A DNA stretch of 55,306 nt from a virus. Lineage: Duplodnaviria > Heunggongvirae > Uroviricota > Caudoviricetes. The translations under genes and the position numbers were made by a program. Below, in pieces: positions 4,588-22,117 of this stretch. The notes under the pieces were generated by a model that was not told the DNA's origin, ran no database searches, and saw only the letters and a list, made by a program, of their open reading frames with translations. The stretch lies in IMG/VR virus record IMGVR_UViG_650377933_000002, one strand, 5' to 3'. Each line of letters starts with the position of its first letter. Position 1 is the first letter of the stretch.

Positions 4588-4998
4588 TTAGTGATTCAGG
4601 CCGTTGCCGCGTCCGTCGAGAAAAACTTCCACGAGCAAATCACGGGTATAAGTGCGCTCGATGCCGCGATGCAGATAAAGCCGTCCGCGTAAATTAGCTG
4701 ATGCAGTCCAGGTACCATCTTTGTGTTTGACCAGCATTCCTGGCATGACCGCACCGCGATTAACGGTCTGCGTTCCGTAATGTTGATGAACCATAAAAAC
4801 TCCTGCCCGTAAGCTGGGCTGCTGAACATATAGAGACTTCTGCGCGTATTCAGGCGGTGGATGGCCACCGGTTGTCATAACTAAGCCGCCTCGTTGAAGC
4901 GACTGAGGTATGAGGTGTTGAGTTGATTTCAGCTGGTCACACCGACGTTCACGCGTCCGCTTCACCCCTCGCACTCCCCGGAGCCTGCTGAAATTCAA
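4588..4998 (-). CDS. hypothetical early-left protein, possibly Kil-like; start uncertain
   Basis: 136-aa ORF in the slot after gam; Arg-rich N-terminus, protein-like C-terminal half (..[46 protein letters not shown]..); an alternative-frame ORF 4596..4868 overlaps it, so the frame is not certain. Confidence 0.3.
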
Positions 4999-14858: not shown

Positions 14859-15028
14859 TGGCTACACCGCTTATTCGTGTCATGAACGGACACATCTACA
14901 AAGTACCAAATCGTCGTAAGCGTAAACCTGAGCTGAAGCCATCCGAAATACCAACACTGCTCGGGTATACCGCCAGCCTGGTTGATAAAAAATGGTTGCG
15001 ACTGGCAGCAAGGAGGAATCATGGCTGA
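14858..15028 (+). CDS. ninE: NinE-like protein
   Basis: 56-codon ORF ([56 protein letters not shown]) starting on the ybcN stop codon (TAATG); absent from the ORF track because it is under 60 aa. Confidence 0.65.
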   Translation: MATPLIRVMNGHIYKVPNRRKRKPELKPSEIPTLLGYTASLVDKKWLRLAARRNHG

Positions 15029-15311
15029 TTTGAGAAAAGCAGCGCGTGGTCGGGAATGCCAGGTAAGAATCCCTGGCGTATGTAATGGCAATCCTGAAAC
15101 GTCAGTACTGGCACATATCCGGCTGGCTGGATTGTGCTGTACCGGTATCAAACCGCCAGACCTGATTGCCACCATTGCATGTTCTGCCTGCCACGACGAA
15201 ATCGACCGTCGCACGCATTTTGTTGACGCTGGATATGCAAAAGAATGCGCGCTGGAAGGTATGGCGAGAACACAGGTTATCTGGTTGAAAGAGGGGGTTA
15301 TTGAGGCGTGA
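15021..15311 (+). CDS. ybcO: YbcO-like protein (DUF1364, Cys-rich putative nuclease)
   Basis: ORF 14982..15311; ATG at 15021 ([35 protein letters not shown]..) gives 96 aa matching recalled YbcO; overlaps the ninE stop. Confidence 0.8.
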
Positions 15312-15670
15312 ATACCTACAGCATCACATTACCCTGGCCGCCGAGCAATAATCGCTATTACCGCCATAATCGCGGACGCACGCATATCAGCGCAGAGGGG
15401 CAGGCATACCGCGATAATGTCGCCCGAATCATTAAAAACGCAATGCTGGATATCGGCCTGGCTATTCCTGTGAAAATCAGCATTGAGTGCCACATGCCGG
15501 ATCGCCGTCGCCGTGACCTTGATAATCTGCAAAAGGCCGCTTTTGACGCACTCACCAAAGCAGGTTTCTGGCTGGATGATGCTCAGGTCGTTGATTACCG
15601 CGTTGTGAAGATGCCCGTTACCAAAGGTGGGAAGCTGGAGCTGACTATCACTGAACTGGGAGATGAATGA
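15308..15670 (+). CDS. rusA: Holliday junction resolvase RusA
   Basis: 120-aa ORF matching RusA ([49 protein letters not shown]..). Confidence 0.9.
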
Positions 15671-15807
15671 TGTTTGAGTCTTATATGGCAGAGCGTCTTC
15701 GCCGCCGCTGGGTGCGCCTGCGCTTATATCGTTTTCCTGGTTCTGTTTTGACCGATTACCGAATACTGAAGAATTACGCCAAAACCCTGACAGGAGCAGG
15801 AGTATGA
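15667..15807 (+). CDS. ylcG: YlcG-like small protein
   Basis: 46-codon ORF ([46 protein letters not shown]) overlapping the rusA stop; matches recalled YlcG; below the ORF-track size cutoff. Confidence 0.6.
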
Positions 15808-15892
15808 AGTCAGAGATAACAATCAACTAATACTGTTTTGTTGATTTTTGCTTGTAATTGGCGTTCTGGTCTGATTTTTGTGGAGTAAGTTG

Positions 15893-16276
15893 ATGCGTGA
15901 TATTCAGATGGTTCTTGAGCGTTGGGGAGCGTGGGCGGCTAATAATCATGAAGATGTGACCTGGTCGTCCGTTGCCGCCGGTTTTAAGGGATTAATTCCT
16001 TCAAAAGTAAAATCTCGCCCGCAATGTTGTGACGATGACGCGATGATCATTTGCGGGTGCATGGCCCGTCTGAAAAAGAACAACAGCGATTTACACGATT
16101 TATTAGTAGATTATTATGTATGTGGTATGACATTCATGTCACTGGCAAGTAAGCATTGCTGCTCGGATGGTTATATCGGGAAAAGGTTACAGAAGGCTGA
16201 GGGCATAATTGAAGGGATGTTAATGGCATTAGATATCCGGTTAGATATGGATATCGTTGCTAATAATTCTAATTGA
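15893..16276 (+). CDS. quuD: late-gene antiterminator Q (phage 21 / QuuD type)
   Basis: ORF 15878..16276; ATG at 15893 ([59 protein letters not shown]..) matches recalled DLP12 QuuD. Confidence 0.85.
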
Positions 16277-16300
16277 TATGCAATTGTTTACTAAAAGTTA

Positions 16301-16327
16301 TTAAAAATGGGGCGTGGAAACGCCCCC
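16301..16327 (-). terminator. intrinsic terminator downstream of the porin gene
   Basis: GGGGCGTGGAAACGCCCC hairpin; on the minus strand it is followed by a U-rich tract (AUUUUUAAUAAC). Confidence 0.55.
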
Positions 16328-16413
16328 AAAATAAAGGGTAATATATAACAGAAGGTTTATATAGTAAGAAGCAAGGTAGTGCTTCTAAAGGAAGTGGCTT
16401 GAGGGCTCCACTT

Positions 16414-16455
16414 ATATGTTGCGGAGGCAAAGCCTCCCGCAACATATCTTTTTCG
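16414..16455 (+). terminator. intrinsic terminator (plus strand, downstream of Q)
   Basis: Perfect 14-bp stem ATATGTTGCGGAGG / CCTCCGCAACATAT with CAAAG loop, followed by CTTTTTCG. Confidence 0.6.
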
Positions 16456-16464
16456 TAAGTCAGA

Positions 16465-17547
16465 TTAGAACTGATAAACCAGACCTACAGCGACGATGTC
16501 GTCGGTATCAATACCAGCTGTTTTGGTAAACTTACTATCGTCAATTAAGTTGATTTTGTAATCAACAAAAGTGGACATGTTTTTATTAAAGTAGTAAGTA
16601 GCACCGACATCGACATACTTGACTAAGTCTCGGTCACCATGAACACCAAGGTCTTTACCTTTTGACTGAAGGTAAGCAACAGATGGTCGCAGACCGAAGT
16701 CAAACTGATATTGTGCTACTGCTTCAAAGTTTTGTGCTTTGTTTGCAATATGGTTATTACCAAAAACGGTCATATTCTGAGTTTCAGAATATGTGGTAGC
16801 CAGATAGATATTGTTCGCATCATATTTCAGGCCTGCAGCCCATACTTCCGCATTTTTGCCGGAGGCATTGAATTTGCTCTTACCATAGGCGACCTGACCG
16901 TCAGTGCGATCTGATTTAGCATAGGTTGCACCCACGCCGAATCCTTCATACTCATAAGTAGTGGAGAAACCGAAACCATCACCATTGGCTTCAGTTACGT
17001 CAGTGCGGTCATTTTTACCCTGATACTGAGCAGCAAAGTTCAGGCCATCGACCAGACCAAAGAAGTCGTTGTTACGATAAGTTGCAACACCAGTAGTGCG
17101 ACCAGTCATGAACACATCTGTTTGGGTCCAGGTATCACCACCGAATTCTGGCAGGACGTCAGTCCACGCACCGATGTCGTATGCTACACCGTAGTTACGG
17201 CCGTAATCGATTGAGCCGTAATCACCAAATTTCAGGCCTGCAAATGCAAGACGGGTTTTGTCTTTGGAAGAACCTTGAGATTCAGCACGGTTGCCTTTGA
17301 ATTCATATTCCCACTGACCGAAACCAGTCAGTTGATCGTTGATTTGGGTTTCACCTTTGAAGCCAAGACGGGCATAAGTAGTATCACCATCATCTGCATC
17401 ATTAGAGGAGAAGTAGTGCTTGGCATTAACTTTCCCGTATAGATCCAGCTTGTTACTGTCTTTATTATAAATTTCAGCTGCCTGAGCAGACATCGCCATC
17501 AGTACTGATGCAGCTACAGCAGAAATTGCCACTGTTAATTTTTTCAT
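16465..17547 (-). CDS. nmpC: outer membrane porin (OmpC/NmpC family)
   Basis: 360-aa ORF with signal peptide ([23 protein letters not shown]), classical porin N-terminus ([16 protein letters not shown]...HYFS) and C-terminal aromatic residue (..VGLVYQF). Confidence 0.9.
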
Positions 17548-17974
17548 TGTACGCCCTTTTTTTTGAACTATTATTAAAAAATGATGTCACTGCGCGATAA
17601 ATATTCATCTAATCAATGCGATTATTTCAAGATGTAAGTTTTAGTTTCTCATTTAATTTGTGAAGTAGATCTCTATTTTTATCTGAACCTTTTCTATCTA
17701 ATCCTATTCATGGCTCTTGTTTGAACGAAAATAAATCTATTAGCTAATTTATATTAATGGCACTTATTTATAAGCACTCTATAATTCTTTAGCTTAATTT
17801 AAACAAACTAAAAATAACATCGGAAATTATTCATTGGTTATTTGTTGAAGTTTTCTTATGTATTTGTGGTGGTGTTTTGAACACTCGGTGGCATTCTCAC
17901 AAATATCATTTAGTAGTTTACGTACGTAAAAAATTGGTTATGCTGTTAAGAGTGGTTACTTCGTCACACAGCTT

Positions 17975-18005
17975 AAACCCGCCGTCGAGCGGGTTTTTCC
18001 ATTTT
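17975..18005 (+). terminator. tR'-like intrinsic terminator upstream of the lysis genes
   Basis: AAACCCGC CGTCGA GCGGGTTT hairpin followed by TTCCATTTTTTG, about 130 nt upstream of the holin gene, the position expected for tR' downstream of a Q-dependent late promoter. Confidence 0.55.
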
Positions 18006-18136
18006 TTGAGTCTCGATATTAGCTGATAACCCAATACCTGAGTTATTCACTGACTCCGAATCTGTTACGTTTCTGCCTTTATTGCGATACGTAGTATCCC
18101 CTTAATTTACACCCGCTTTGTCTGCGAGGTGGGGTT

Positions 18137-18352
18137 ATGAAATCCATGGATAAGTTAACAACGGGTGTCGCCTATGGCACCTCAGCAGGTAGTGCCGGGT
18201 ACTGGTTTTTACAGTTGCTCGATAAAGTCACGCCCTCACAGTGGGCGGCAATAGGTGTGCTGGGTAGCCTGGTATTTGGCCTGCTGACGTACCTGACAAA
18301 CCTTTATTTCAAGATTAAAGAAGATAAGCGTAAGGCTGCACGGGGAGAGTAA
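18137..18352 (+). CDS. essD: class II holin (pinholin, phage 21 S type)
   Basis: 71-aa ORF matching recalled EssD/S21 ([61 protein letters not shown]). Confidence 0.9.
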
Positions 18353-18356
18353 TTCA

Positions 18357-18671
18357 ATGACTCAAAACTATGAACTGATTGTGAAAGGGATCCGCAATTT
18401 TGAGAATAAAGTTACGGTAACTTTAGCGTTACGGGACAAAAAACGCTTTGACGGTGAAATTTTTGACCTGGACATCTCGCTGGACCGTGTTGAAGGTGCC
18501 GCGCTGGAGTTTTATGAGGCTGCAGCCAGAAGGAGCATCAGACAGGTCTTCCTGGATGTTGCTGCCGGGTTATGTGAAGGGGACGAGCTGTTGCCAGAAA
18601 CGCGCCCCTGTTCAGAGGCGCGGTATACCATAAAAATTAACAGTTCAGATAACTCGATTACTGGTTGTTAG
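18357..18671 (+). CDS. hypothetical protein between holin and endolysin
   Basis: 104-aa ORF 4 nt after the holin stop; no recognised motif. Confidence 0.4.
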   Translation: MTQNYELIVKGIRNFENKVTVTLALRDKKRFDGEIFDLDISLDRVEGAALEFYEAAARRSIRQVFLDVAAGLCEGDELLPETRPCSEARYTIKINSSDNSITGC

Positions 18672-18907
18672 CCTTTTGTTTCAGTTGGTTTTCCAATATC
18701 TTTCATTGGTAGCAGCATTTCCAGATTGCTTTTGATATATGGATTATTTACATGTTCATTTAATTGATGAATGATTCCATTTTTTTCATTCTGGTCCAAT
18801 ACGGAAAATATTACTGTAATCATATATTTAAGAGCTTCAATTTCTTTTGCTGTTGATGCAGGAGATGAGCAGTCAGCTGTAATATTGATAAAAACTTCTT
18901 TTTGCAT
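18668..18907 (-). CDS. hypothetical protein (AT-rich, opposite strand within the lysis cassette)
   Basis: 79-aa ORF in a markedly AT-rich segment, antisense to the flanking lysis genes. Confidence 0.3.
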   Translation of the reverse strand: MQKEVFINITADCSSPASTAKEIEALKYMITVIFSVLDQNEKNGIIHQLNEHVNNPYIKSNLEMLLPMKDIGKPTETKG

Positions 18908-19041
18908 ATCAAATCCTCAGATGGGGTAGCTCAGCCAGCATCCCCCATAATCCTTAACCAGAGCGCCAGTGTCCTACCACTGACGGGCTGAATGCTTAAC
19001 ATATCCAGGGTTCAGAAACCGATAAATCCTGATAAATATCC

Positions 19042-19575
19042 ATGAACGTAAAAATCAGATACGGCCTGTCGGCTGCTGTTCTGGCGCTGATTGCCGCAGG
19101 CGCGTCTGCTCCTCAGATACTTGACCAGTTTCTGGACGAAAAAGAGGGTAACCACACAAAGGCATACCGCGATGGTTCCGGCATATGGACCATTTGCCGG
19201 GGTGCCACGGTGGTGGATGGTAAACCTGTTATTCCGGGCATGAAACTGTCGAAGGAAAAATGCGCCCAGGTTAACGCCATTGAGCGGGATAAGGCGCTGG
19301 CATGGGTGGAGCGTAATATAAAAGTTCCACTGACCGAGCCACAAAAAGCAGGTATCGCGTCATTTTGCCCCTATAACATTGGCCCCGGTAAGTGTTTCCC
19401 GTCGACGTTTTATAAGCGGCTTAATGCCGGTGATCGTAAAGGTGCCTGTGAGTCGATTCGCTGGTGGATTAAGGACGGTGGGCGTGATTGCCGCACACGT
19501 TCAAATAACTGCTACGGACAGGTTATTCGTCGTGACCAGGAAAGCGCATTAGCCTGTTGGGGGATAGATCAGTGA
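19042..19575 (+). CDS. R: endolysin, lysozyme with SAR-type N-terminal signal-anchor
   Basis: 177-aa ORF; N-terminal Gly/Ala-rich weakly hydrophobic segment ([15 protein letters not shown]) followed by lysozyme-like region (..[22 protein letters not shown]..); stop overlaps the Rz start. Confidence 0.8.
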
Positions 19576-20033
19576 GAAGAGTTGCCGCGATTATCTCCGC
19601 TCTGGTTATCTGCATCATCGTCTGCCTGTCTTGGGCTGTTAATCATTACCGCGATAACGCGATTACCTACAAAGCCCAGCGCGACAAAAATGCCAGAGAA
19701 CTGACGCTGGCGAACGCGGCAATTACTGACATACAGATGCGTCAGCGTGATGTTGCTGCGCTCGATGCAAAATACACGAAGGAGTTAGCTGATGCGAAAG
19801 CTGAAAATGATGCTCTGCGTGATGATGTTGCCGCTGGTCGTCGTCGGTTGCACATCAAAGCAGTCTGTCAGTCAGTGCGTGAAGCCACCACCGCCTCCGG
19901 CGTGGATAATGCAGCCTCCCCCCGACTGGCAGACACCGCTGAACGGGATTATTTCACCCTCAGAGAGAGGCTGATCACTATGCAAAAACAACTGGAAGGA
20001 ACCCAGAAGTATATTAATGAGCAGTGCAGATAG
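19572..20033 (+). CDS. Rz: i-spanin Rz
   Basis: ORF 19557..20033 (TTG); GTG at 19572 gives a product matching lambda Rz (..[42 protein letters not shown]..); overlaps the endolysin stop. Confidence 0.85.
19792..19974 (+). CDS. Rz1: o-spanin Rz1 (lipoprotein, embedded in Rz in the +1 frame)
   Basis: 60-aa ORF matching lambda Rz1 ([59 protein letters not shown]) with lipobox VGC and Pro-rich tract. Confidence 0.85.
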
Positions 20034-20064
20034 AGCTGCCCATATCGATGGGCAACTCATGCAA

Positions 20065-20358
20065 CTATTGTGAGCAATATACCCGGGCTTCCAGCGGAGT
20101 ATAGATGCCAAAAGTGATAAAACCGAGCAATCCATTTACGAATGTTTGCTGAGTTTCTGTTTTAACAACATTTTCTGCACCGCCACAAATTTTGGCTGCA
20201 TCAACAGTTTTCTCTTGTCCAATTCCCGAAACGAAGAAATGATGAGTGATGGTTTCCTTTGGTGTTACTGCTGTCGGTTTGTTTCCAACAGTAAACGTTT
20301 GTTGAGCACATCCTGTAATAAGCATTGCCAGAGCGGCAGAAAATAACATTTTTTTCAT
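20065..20358 (-). CDS. bor: Bor lipoprotein (serum resistance)
   Basis: ORF 20065..20373; from MKKML the 97-aa product matches lambda Bor (..ITGCAQQTFTV.NKP.AV.PKETITHHFFVSGIGQ.KTVDAAKICGGAENVVKTETQQTFVNGLLGFIT.GIYTPLEARVYCSQ). Confidence 0.9.
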   Translation of the reverse strand: MKKMLFSAALAMLITGCAQQTFTVGNKPTAVTPKETITHHFFVSGIGQEKTVDAAKICGGAENVVKTETQQTFVNGLLGFITFGIYTPLEARVYCSQ

Positions 20359-20838
20359 CTTATTATCCTGCATTGTTAAAAACGGCAGAATCCTATGTCA
20401 TAATAATTAAACGATAGCTAAATGGATTGATGAAAATTAAAACTACACAGGTGGGCTCAGACTATTGGAGGAAGTTGGGGACACTCAGAATCCTGTGGAA
20501 TGAAATAAACCGGTCTATCCGTCCATTACCCTTTTAGCTGCGCTGTATCGTCGCCGTATTCCCGCATTAACCATGACCGTAGCCCGACGGGGAATTCCTT
20601 CTGCGTGAGTGTGCGGGAATAATTAAAAACGATGCACACCGGGTTTTTACCGCGTTAATGATTCGCGGGTTTATCCCGGTGCGATGGTGGAAGAAACAGG
20701 AAGCTGTATTACAGAAAGTGCTACTACTGTATCCCGATGCGATGTATGTAATGTGAGTCAGATAATGGCACAGGATGTGGTGATGTGGCAGTCTGGAACA
20801 CAGGATATATTGTCAGAATAAGACCCGTAGGAATAAAA

Positions 20839-21165
20839 ATGAAAAGACGCCTTTTACTACTTTTTCTGTTATCTGTCCTGGCAGTGGGATGCTCGCAGCA
20901 AAAAGCTGATGAGCCCCGGCAATTAGTGACGGTGTATCCACGATATCCGGAATATGCTGCAGCAAATTATATCAAGGGGCTGGTTGAGGTTAAGTTCGAT
21001 ATTGGTGCTGATGGGACTGTGACACGGATCGTTTTTCTCCGCTCAGAGCCTCATAATTTGTTTCGTGATGAAGTGGTGAAGGCCATGGCGAAATGGCGAT
21101 TTGAAAAGAATCGCCCCTGTCAGGGAGTGAAGAGACAATTTATCTTTACGCCGTCACGTCCTTGA
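20839..21165 (+). CDS. putative envelope lipoprotein (TonB C-terminal-like?)
   Basis: ORF 20785..21165; ATG at 20839 with upstream AGGA; signal peptide plus lipobox (MKRRLLLLFLLSVLAVGCSQ); domain call is tentative. Confidence 0.45.
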   Translation: MKRRLLLLFLLSVLAVGCSQQKADEPRQLVTVYPRYPEYAAANYIKGLVEVKFDIGADGTVTRIVFLRSEPHNLFRDEVVKAMAKWRFEKNRPCQGVKRQFIFTPSRP

Positions 21166-21287
21166 TGCTTCCAGGTAGAGAGGGGCTGGAAGCAGGAGAA
21201 AAATGAAAGAGCCAGCGGTTATATTTTTGTCATGGCTGACGAGGAATGATGGAAGAAGGCGTTGTATGCCACACAACGCCTCACTGT

Positions 21288-21467
21288 TCATTTCTTCTTT
21301 TTCTCTGGTGGAACCCGATGAATAAGAGTTGCACTGGTTTCCGATGAGATGGCGATATACTCGGGCAAAGTATGCTGGCAGTTTTCCAACTGGTCAAAAA
21401 TACCTGCTCTCGTCTGTTGCAATGCCTGCAGCATGCGGCGGCAATGCGCCTTGCTTTTACTAACCAT
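21288..21467 (-). CDS. hypothetical small protein (DLP12 YbcW-like?)
   Basis: ORF 21288..21641; plausible start at internal ATG (MVSKSKAHCRRMLQALQQTRAGIFDQLE..); overlaps another minus-strand ORF in a different frame, so uncertain. Confidence 0.3.
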   Translation of the reverse strand: MVSKSKAHCRRMLQALQQTRAGIFDQLENCQHTLPEYIAISSETSATLIHRVPPEKKKK

Positions 21468-21528
21468 CTTTCCTTCCTCTATCAGTCGCTGCGTGAACTC
21501 ATCATGGAATACCAGGTAAATGCGGATG

Positions 21529-21780
21529 TTATCGGTTTTGGCTACGCAGCATAGTACAAAACGGACAGGTGCATCCCGGGACGGGGGAGGCGTCACATGT
21601 CCCTGTGATGGTTGTTCCGGGTAATGTACTGTGTGGGGCATAAAAATGTCCGATAATTTTACTTTCTACCGCAGTTAGTTGATTCGTTGGTCCTGGTAGC
21701 ACATTGGGCGAGGATTTAAATGCCAGGCAACTGAAGGATGATGTCGCAAGGGAGATAGCGAGAATATTTCTGATTTTCAT
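21529..21780 (-). CDS. hypothetical secreted Cys-rich small protein
   Basis: ORF 21529..21849; from internal ATG at 21780 an 84-aa product with signal-peptide-like N-terminus (MKIRNILAISLATSSFSCLA) and Cys-rich C-terminus. Confidence 0.3.
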   Translation of the reverse strand: MKIRNILAISLATSSFSCLAFKSSPNVLPGPTNQLTAVESKIIGHFYAPHSTLPGTTITGTCDASPVPGCTCPFCTMLRSQNR

Positions 21781-21900
21781 TTGATGATGCCTCTGTGTGA
21801 AATGACGGTAAACGACGCACTTGTGCCGGCACATAATAGCAAGCACCATAATAGATCAGATTCGATTCTTGCTGTAAGTGATAATTATTCTCGTTTTCGG

Positions 21901-22117
21901 GTCCTTTCCGTCGATCCAACAGGTTACGGGGCGGCGACCTCGCGGGTTTTCGCTATTTATGAAAATTTTCCGGTTTAAGGCGTTTCCGTTCTTCTTCGCC
22001 GTAACCTAATGTTTTTATTTAAAACACCCCCTGAAAAGAAAGGAAACGACAGGTGCTGAAAACGGGCTTTTTAGCCTCTGTCGTTTCCTTTCTCTGTTTT
22101 TGTCCGTGGAATGAACA
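21901..22117 (+). other. phage cos site (cosQ-cosN-cosB); cosN cohesive-end sequence GGGCGGCGACCT at 21929..21940
   Basis: Matches lambda ..CAACAGGTTACG|GGGCGGCGACCTCGCGGGTTTTCGCTATTTATGAAAATTTTCCGGTTTAAGGCGTTTCCGTTCTTCTTCG.. immediately upstream of Nu1. Confidence 0.9.

Follow-up and report, generated by a model that had tools for sequence, protein, structure and literature searches.

A late YdfR/DUF1327 gene and an antisense moron on a shared promoter-leader block probably fill the holin-endolysin gap of a lambdoid prophage

What occupies the gap between the holin gene S and the endolysin gene R in the lysis cassette of IMG/VR record IMGVR_UViG_650377933_000002? The record, assigned to Caudoviricetes, was analyzed as one stretch of 55,306 nucleotides (the window, numbered from its first letter). 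An earlier note, made from the sequence alone, had pointed to two extra open reading frames (ORFs) in this gap: a 104-aa frame (ORF104) that begins 4 nt after the end of the holin gene at 18352, and a 79-aa frame (ORF79) on the opposite strand. All of these coordinates were confirmed. Our results indicate that the gap probably consists of a late gene of the YdfR/DUF1327 family and a self-contained antisense moron, with ORF79 as its cargo, on a promoter-leader platform that is shared with other small genes. Positions 18100–19600 of the window were 100% identical to the chromosome of E. coli LF82 and to its lambdoid prophage, phage Perceval (OV696612.1). The elements of the gap are as follows.

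18357..18671, + strand: ORF104, a YdfR/DUF1327 protein (PF07041, E 5e-39), starting 4 nt past the holin stop
18592..18622, - strand: terminator-like hairpin of the ORF79 unit, read from the sequence and found by script
18668..18907, - strand: ORF79, a 79-aa cargo of the phrog_21218 family (profile match, dN/dS, homologues)
18908..18991, - strand: conserved 84-nt leader (covariance model R1, covariation counts)
18992..19041, - strand: promoter-like block abutting the endolysin start codon, read from the sequence and shared with the loci of two other antisense frames of 86 and 90 aa (ORF86 and ORF90)

The stop ends of ORF104 and ORF79 overlapped by 4 nt on opposite strands.

ORF104 matched PF07041 (DUF1327) with 132.8 bits, against a Pfam cut-off of 25. 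Its DUF1327 relatives formed 260 clusters at 90% identity, and those with a named source all came from Escherichia, Shigella or Salmonella. Members of the family share a conserved core of about 75 residues and carry variable C-terminal tails or extensions. Residues 1–72 of ORF104 correspond to the conserved domain and residues from about 80 to 104 to the variable tail. Compared to YdfR of the K-12 Qin prophage, ORF104 showed 65% identity overall and 82% (59/72) across the RNase E-binding residues 1–72. Both proteins belong to the same family and lie at the same position between an S21-type holin and a lysozyme, whereas they differ in the C-terminal tail, which in ORF104 overlaps the 3' untranslated region (UTR) and the terminator of ORF79. 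The order holin-YdfR-endolysin was present in K-12 Qin (essQ-ydfR-rrrQ), mEp460, the Stx1 phages and many others; in K-12 Qin, ydfR overlaps rrrQ by 4 nt and no antisense gene lies between them. Because this order is the normal state of this type of cassette, ORF104 is not an unusual insertion. In an LF82 lysogen, ORF104 was transcribed at about 11 fragments per kilobase per million (fpkm), at the background level of S (8) and R (7), while the Perceval morons NmpC and TonB fragment reached 69 and 56. Judged from its late-operon direction, its start 4 nt after the holin, its normal GC content, its S- and R-like background transcription and its widespread family, ORF104 is a widespread late-operon gene and not a moron.

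A structure model of ORF104 (AlphaFold2, AF2) consisted of a three-stranded sheet packed on a long helix, with a predicted local distance difference test score (pLDDT) of 73–86 over residues 1–70; the tail scored below 50 and was disordered. The first 72 residues of K-12 YdfR, found by a two-hybrid screen, suffice for interaction with residues 1–597 of RNase E, and full-length Strep-YdfR pulled down RNase E 1–598 with RNA in the eluate; RNase E binding is the only YdfR property that has been tested (PMC13232886, 2026). By analogy, ORF104 would be soluble and would bind the catalytic N-terminal half of RNase E, and perhaps RNA as well. Its gene would be part of the Q-dependent late transcript and be expressed along with those of the holin, the endolysin and the spanins. 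From the predicted RNase E binding it follows that ORF104 would act on RNA metabolism late in infection and not on the membrane steps of lysis. ORF104 may be described as a putative late-expressed RNase E- and RNA-binding accessory protein, with the binding taken over from its K-12 homologue.

ORF79 stands in the sharply AT-rich stretch that had been noticed before: its GC content was 30.4%, compared to 48.5% for the window, 47% for ORF104 and 52% for the endolysin gene, and only 3.3% of 240-nt windows were as AT-rich. The length of ORF79 alone is weak evidence for a gene, since a closed frame of at least 79 codons arose in 56 of 2000 shuffles (2.8%) of the segment. Other evidence was stronger. 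ORF79 matched phrog_21218 over its full length (E 2e-57, 1–79/79), and distant members of its family matched the same profile. RefSeq annotates it in LF82 as WP_001168526.1, while the Perceval record is without it. Among three diverged E. coli copies, dN/dS (the ratio of nonsynonymous to synonymous changes) was 0.19–0.28 in its own frame versus 0.43–2.1 in the other two frames of the same strand. Homologues with 38–54% identity were found in Salmonella, Klebsiella and Serratia. On the strength of the full-length profile match, the RefSeq annotation, the dN/dS values and the homologues in other genera, ORF79 is read from its sequence as a real gene under purifying selection. Conservation of the two proteins, which the earlier note had left to a homology search, was thus established for both, ORF104 as DUF1327 and ORF79 as phrog_21218 in four genera.

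The predicted ORF79 protein is acidic (isoelectric point 5.6) and soluble. Pfam, NCBIfam and PADLOC gave nothing significant for it; the PADLOC profiles did not match ORF104 either, and a sequence search of the PDB returned nothing for either protein. An exhaustive HMMER search with the ORF79 profile yielded three small proteins (P0010, P0012 and P0014) that were kept as true relatives, and a protein-pattern scan of one genome per species found no ORF79 relatives. HK022 gp23 (Srb) shared 24% identity with ORF79 through a common motif and was joined to it by BLAST single linkage. We regard ORF79 as a putative small helical cytoplasmic protein distantly related to this HK022 moron protein; the most likely mode of action of ORF79 would be binding to a protein of the host or of the phage. 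Several weaker matches were set apart. Those of ORF79 to IraP (E 0.09) and DUF1514 (E 0.022) were dismissed as non-significant, and large multi-stretch matches in the HMMER search looked compositional and were set aside. One ORF79-family member matched PF10769 below threshold (E 0.015), and K-12 YecF/DUF2594 (locus L021, 1819–2043) aligned with the central helix of the family at an hhalign probability of 29% over 31 columns only.

Is ORF79 an addition to the cassette? Phage mEp460 carries the S-YdfR-R cassette at 95% identity without ORF79, and has only 55 bp between ydfR and R. A clean deletion of about 315 bp took the cargo together with the leader and most of the promoter block, and mEp460 is a deletion derivative because the last 44 bp of ORF79 remain. 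In mEp460 (L002, 3052–3106; window 18672–19041), these 44 bp are fused to the last 15 bp or so before the endolysin ATG. Of 5426 complete E. coli genomes, 102 contained ORF79 DNA, while the cassette around it is nearly universal. A group of E. coli prophages carries ORF79 upstream of a holin_8/holin_3_7/M15 peptidase cassette and following another convergent gene. A further copy, in a Logan contig, has DUF1327 on one side and, on the other, the lysozyme of a cassette whose holin belongs to PF16080. The Salmonella homologue lies between Q and the holin, and those of Klebsiella and Serratia lie between the lysis genes and the terminase. The homologues of these three genera were always antisense to the late genes, and their neighbours were unrelated to YdfR.

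Between differently flanked ORF79 copies, homology extended from just beyond a terminator-like hairpin (18601–18622 plus the U-tract) to the base before the endolysin ATG. The hairpin, CGCGCCUCU-GAAC-AGGGGCGCG followed by UUUCUGGCA, lies 45 nt past the ORF79 stop, within the tail codons of ORF104. In other copies it has a perfect GC stem of 7–9 bp followed by TTTTCC. The tail type of ORF104 travels with the type of antisense cargo, and it travels with ORF79 because the hairpin is encoded in the last ORF104 codons. At the other end, a -10-like TATGTT (19003–18998) stands 6 nt upstream of the motif UCAGCC, and a -35-like TTTATC (19026–19021) precedes it with a spacer of 17 nt. ORF79 would accordingly be read as the cargo of a self-contained antisense unit at about 18592–19041, consisting of a promoter-like block, a structured leader, a Shine-Dalgarno (SD) sequence, the AT-rich ORF and the terminator-like hairpin.

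By definition (PMC3594210), a moron is an extra gene that differs in GC content, has a promoter and a terminator of its own and is expressed while the prophage is repressed. ORF79 is absent at the same place in the close relative mEp460, and its GC content of 30.4% departs from the 47–52% of its neighbours. In place of a proven promoter and terminator it has a conserved TAnnnT box and a hairpin with a U-tract, but its hexamers are weak and were not called by a generic scan. Like the lambdoid-phage morons HK97 gene 15, HK022 gp23/srb and lambda bor (PMC3594210), ORF79 is an extra gene of deviant GC content with promoter- and terminator-like signals, and like lambda bor it is opposed to the surrounding late operon. 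By such criteria, its classification as a moron is supported. The earlier note had considered an insertion at this point unusual and had suggested a moron. The moron idea holds for ORF79, which is extra compared to mEp460, varies in presence, is low in GC and has its own promoter- and terminator-like signals and a shared leader; neither idea holds for ORF104, whose place between holin and endolysin is common.

The non-coding leader was conserved upstream of ORF79-family genes in four genera, though the proteins are only 38–54% identical. From 5' to 3', it consists of UCAGCC (18991–18986), the hairpin P2 (18985–18964, an 8-bp stem with the loop GUAGGA), the stem H2 (18948–18943 paired with 18926–18921) around the loop motif GGCUGA (18936–18931), (G)AUGGCUGA, the SD sequence GAGGA (18918–18914) and the start codon. 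The TAnnnT box stands exactly 6 nt before UCAGCC, and the same distance was found in 89 distinct instances with the consensus TAaggT. Covariance model R1 had a sole match in the window, at 18905–18991 on the - strand (59.7 bits, E 2e-13). RNAalifold paired UCAGCC with GGCUGA (P1) and nested P2 inside this pairing. Conserved two-hairpin 5' UTRs ending at the SD sequence are also known from cis-regulatory 5' leaders such as translational operators and those of CsrA type. CsrA-type leaders carry a GGA consensus, and the leader described here has GGA motifs in its P2 loop, its H2 stem and its SD sequence.

In ten sequences, four pairs of P2 had changed on both sides. Among 48 non-redundant leaders, many of them related by descent, double changes were found at 5 of 8 pairs in P2 and at 3 of 5 pairs in H2. 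In the same set, 97.9% of P2 cells and 89.5% of H2 cells were paired; these percentages are inflated, because the set was found by a motif pattern and then filtered on P2 pairing, while the covariation at the two free P2 positions and in H2 is unaffected by this ascertainment. For every whole-structure measure, the observed value was attained in 0 of 500 shuffles, and pairing in slid controls was 45% or less. G-U pairs were confined to the ORF-sense strand, an indication that the fold belongs to RNA and not to DNA. Rfam 15 gave no match at E ≤ 1 in window positions 15000–22000 or in 8 further loci. A tRNA or tmRNA remnant in 18920–18990 was considered as well, and ARAGORN found nothing there.

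Two side observations concern the pairing of the leader. UCAGCC has two possible partners, the GGCUGA of the H2 loop and, in several members, another GGCUGA/GGUUGA copy overlapping the SD sequence (GGCUGAGGA in loci L004 and L025, GGUUGAGGA in Salmonella; window 18914–18926 and 18931–18936, - strand). As read from the sequence, this alternative pairing could act as a switch by masking the ribosome-binding site. An isolated P2-like hairpin (CGTCAGTGGGTGACACTGGCG) was also noted in an Stx1a phage, about 60 nt before its holin gene and on the strand of the late genes (L013, 1422–1442, +; covariance model E 1.4), and may be a leader remnant or chance.

The leader was not restricted to ORF79. At least 120 stretches in viral contigs matched the motif pattern, and all leader counts from these contigs are lower bounds. 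P2 had at least 7 of its 8 pairs in 105 of the 121 pattern matches listed, although the pattern does not demand this pairing. With duplicates removed, at least 91 distinct instances remained, 80 of which had an ORF of at least 40 aa starting 16–33 nt (all but two 19–28) after GGCUGA. The cargo ORFs were mostly 63–98 aa long and fell into at least 21 BLAST-unrelated clusters by BLASTP single linkage; the largest cluster, with 33 members among the instances listed, includes ORF79. Among these instances, the flanking genes were mostly on the opposite strand (median 78% of the flanking coding length, none below 20%), cargo GC was below that of the flanks in 80 of 80 (39% versus 52%), and a terminator-like hairpin followed the cargo stop in 50 of 77. 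A convergent DUF1327-like ORF lay downstream in 10 of the 75 cassettes listed, with three unrelated cargo clusters; the convergent pairing of a cargo with DUF1327 is recurrent and is a minority arrangement. In complete E. coli genomes, at least part of the promoter and leader block was found in 2280 of 5426 (42%) at 4901 places, and the full block in 101 genomes. Nothing was annotated under most of the matches listed.

Some of these leaders precede genes that had already been recorded as morons. In HK022, the leader stands 5 nt upstream of gp23, an antisense gene between the tail genes I and J with the annotation 'srb protein; moron gene product'. In ES18, it stands upstream of gp25 ('possible moron'), antisense between tail genes and convergent with gp24 (DUF1327). 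The leader of ORF79 is thus the same as that of these annotated morons, and it was also present in SPN3UB, mEp213, mEp043, HK633 and others. The ES18 pair gp24/gp25 (L175, 1875–2427) is convergent as in the window, but among tail genes, and the leader-driven gp23 of HK022 (L174, 1877–2197) converges on gp22 and overlaps it.

A few cargos had recognizable domains. One contig (L063, 1785–2323 and 4078–4375) carried two leader cassettes 2 kb apart, antisense, between the lysis genes and the terminase, with a 154-aa retropepsin-like aspartyl protease and a 73-aa Srb-like protein as cargos. Elsewhere, a 268-aa cargo matched DUF6602 and the NucC-like PD-(D/E)xK nucleases (L120; PADLOC E 3e-26), an 87-aa cargo matched DUF1883 (L062; E 4e-27), and a 63-aa cargo was a zinc ribbon with a weak match to Lar, which is involved in restriction alleviation (L071). 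Such domains give hints of defence or counter-defence roles.

The slot between ydfR and R itself was also occupied by other cargos. Phages Chlobot and 783R2 carry a 90-aa antisense ORF (phrog_2411) there, and PhiR63_1 and 2H10 an unannotated 86-aa antisense ORF (phrog_2572). BLASTP and hhalign among the 79-, 86- and 90-aa slot ORFs found no homology. All three follow one promoter block beside the R start codon, GGATATTTATCAGGATTTATCGG..., ending GGATATGTT. The ORF86 and ORF90 loci share only this promoter block with ORF79, and ORF86 additionally has a P2-like hairpin; the covariance model had no match in the ORF86 and ORF90 leaders or in K-12 Qin. ORF86 (L010, 2232–2492, -) and ORF90 (L011, 2068–2340, -, and L012, 828–1100, -) both overlap the 3' end of longer YdfR variants.

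Taken together, the promoter and leader would form a shared platform before at least 21 BLAST-unrelated cargos, almost always opposed to the late genes, in temperate phages of enterobacteria. We infer two jobs for it: it would let the prophage express the cargo independently of Q, with the leader fold exerting post-transcriptional control, and it would offer a homology anchor for the swapping of cargos. A tentative proposal, to which we give somewhat less than an even chance, is that the leader acts as a cis-regulatory RNA not yet described, perhaps as a pseudoknot or as a switch between two pairings of UCAGCC, and serves together with its promoter as a common expression and exchange platform for a large pool of small accessory genes of fast turnover. 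Among known systems, the PeSL cassettes of T4-type phages come closest to the shared leader. The abstracts of PMC2839356 and PMC4122927 describe them as conserved promoter and stem-loop blocks that flank variable small ORFs without an assigned function and mark points of gene insertion, deletion or replacement. The leader differs in its phage group (temperate enterobacterial siphoviruses) and has no sequence relation to PeSL; it also forms a complete 5' UTR whose distance to the start codon is fixed, and its cargo is antisense to the surrounding operon. The moron review (PMC3594210) does not mention a promoter-leader with a covarying hairpin shared by unrelated cargos, and literature searches for three leader sequence strings and for a shared moron leader returned no paper.

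Several results count against this picture of the gap. On the side of the genes, overproduction of K-12 YdfR altered few transcripts (PMC13232886), and a Foldseek search of the YdfR model against the PDB found no informative neighbour (best E 0.02, TM-score at most 0.35). The AF2 model of ORF79, three helices at pLDDT 63, is of low confidence and too poor for a fold search. Many ORF79 copies carry a 1-nt deletion in an A7 run (codons 41–43) that leaves a 48-aa product, which was listed in 351 blocks of the collection (e.g., loci L005–L008, 3001–3147). Such frameshifted copies are at least as common as intact ones, so the ORF79 protein may often be dispensable. As to the signals of the ORF79 unit, the promoter-like hexamers agree at 7 of 12 positions, a generic scan for sigma-70 promoters and terminators called neither signal, the hairpin in the window has one wobble pair and a weaker tail with only 4 T, and ORF79 is absent from the gene table of the LF82 RNA-seq study (GSE154648). 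As to the leader, P1 never varied, and because the search pattern required it, this invariance is not evidence. P1 and H2 cross and cannot both be drawn without a pseudoknot, so the two would either form a pseudoknot or be alternative pairings. Folded as a single sequence, the leader did no better than shuffles (z = -0.03), and the same was true of the whole gap. As a separate observation, E. coli TUM1881 carries frameshifted ORF79 at six places, upstream of the different lysis cassette with holin_8, holin_3_7 and the M15 peptidase.

The earlier note had also suggested a lysis-timing regulator. In such a case, ORF104 would modulate the pinholin or the SAR (signal-arrest-release) endolysin, or the ORF79 transcript, by antisense pairing and cleavage by RNase III, would uncouple or damp the expression of the endolysin and the spanins. 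ORF104 lies almost always directly after the holin, 4 nt from its stop; ORF79-family genes all oppose the late genes, and lysis genes usually lie no more than a few kb away from them; the ORF79 transcript would be complementary over its whole length to the ydfR-R part of the late mRNA; and, according to the passage of PMC13232886 that cites it, a screen tied ydfR to envelope integrity. However, neither ORF104 nor ORF79 has a transmembrane segment or signal peptide, and antiholin-like features (a hydrophobic segment of transmembrane length, a dual-start holin product, consistent placement in lysis cassettes) were found in neither family. DUF1327 also occurs among the tail genes of ES18, relatives of ORF79 and other leader cassettes stand before the holin, after the spanins, beside the terminase or between tail genes, and mEp460 is viable after losing ORF79. 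No positive evidence for a role in lysis timing emerged, and we consider it unlikely. Still less probable, in our judgement, is a functional two-gene module of ORF104 and ORF79 (effector and inhibitor, or regulator and target) that moves as a convergent pair. The tail type of ORF104 does co-vary with the antisense cargo type, and the 10 of 75 cassettes listed with a convergent DUF1327-like ORF, like ES18 gp24/gp25, show the same arrangement, but physical linkage explains the tail co-variation, as the tail codons overlap the cargo 3' UTR and terminator. Most YdfR genes have no antisense partner (K-12 Qin, mEp460, the Stx1 phages), 65 of the 75 cassettes are listed without a DUF1327 neighbour, and the ORF79 homologues of Salmonella, Klebsiella and Serratia have unrelated neighbours; such a module is very unlikely.

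The conserved block might instead be mainly a DNA-level recombination anchor resembling PeSL, with hairpins that have no RNA function and with ORF79 as a neutral or decaying cargo. Homology breakpoints coincide with the edges of the block, different cargos stand behind an identical promoter block in the same slot, and frameshifted ORF79 copies are widespread, with six places in one strain. Against this stand the compensatory changes that keep P2 paired, the restriction of G-U pairs to the ORF-sense strand, the fixed distances of the -10-like box and the start codon from the motifs, and the purifying selection on ORF79. An anchor and an RNA role are compatible with each other; an anchor in place of an RNA role is quite unlikely. 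The proposal of an expression and exchange platform includes the anchor as one of its two jobs.

Morons are the main route by which new traits pass from temperate phages to enterobacteria, and they have so far been treated as individual insertions with individual signals. If one promoter-leader serves at least 21 cargo families, including the historical HK022 gp23, they would have a shared regulatory logic, and many unrelated morons would be under one shared regulatory input. A search with the leader would then find cargos systematically and give a handle on dozens of small proteins without an assigned function, including the NucC-like nuclease, DUF1883 and the retropepsin-like protein. Cassette exchange at a common anchor may also explain mosaic hot spots. 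For the lysis cassette, a false lead is removed: the S-R gap would hold a common late gene and a passenger, with no evident lysis regulator.

The surrounding order of genes was the Q antiterminator, an antisense porin, a promoter-like site with a terminator, the S21-type holin, ORF104, antisense ORF79, the endolysin, Rz/Rz1 and antisense Bor/Iss. The lysis genes beside the gap were the following.

18137..18352, + strand: S21-type class II holin (pinholin family, EssD; PF04971 E 2e-35; phrog holin; RefSeq essD)
19042..19575, + strand: endolysin of the T4-lysozyme family (PF00959 E 3e-24; RefSeq lysozyme)
19572..20033, + strand: Rz spanin (PF03245 E 8e-54; RefSeq rzpD)
19792–19974: Rz1-like lipoprotein ORF embedded in Rz, from the ORF list

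The N-terminal segment of the endolysin is rich in Ala and Gly, and by sequence appearance the protein is of SAR type. Between the porin and the holin, a promoter-like site at 17757–17785 (+) reads ATGGCA-17-TATAAT (10/12), and a strong terminator hairpin at 17975–17996 (+) reads AAACCCGC...GCGGGTTT plus a T-run. Their arrangement matches the layout expected of a Q-dependent pR'/tR' region. Three further accessory genes surround the lysis cassette, namely an OmpC/NmpC-type porin (16465–17547, -), Bor/Iss (20065–20373, -) and a TonB fragment (20839–21165, +), and the leader was absent from all three. In the LF82 study, the porin and the TonB fragment were expressed in the lysogen grown in lysogeny broth (LB), and Bor was induced in Dulbecco's modified Eagle medium (DMEM).

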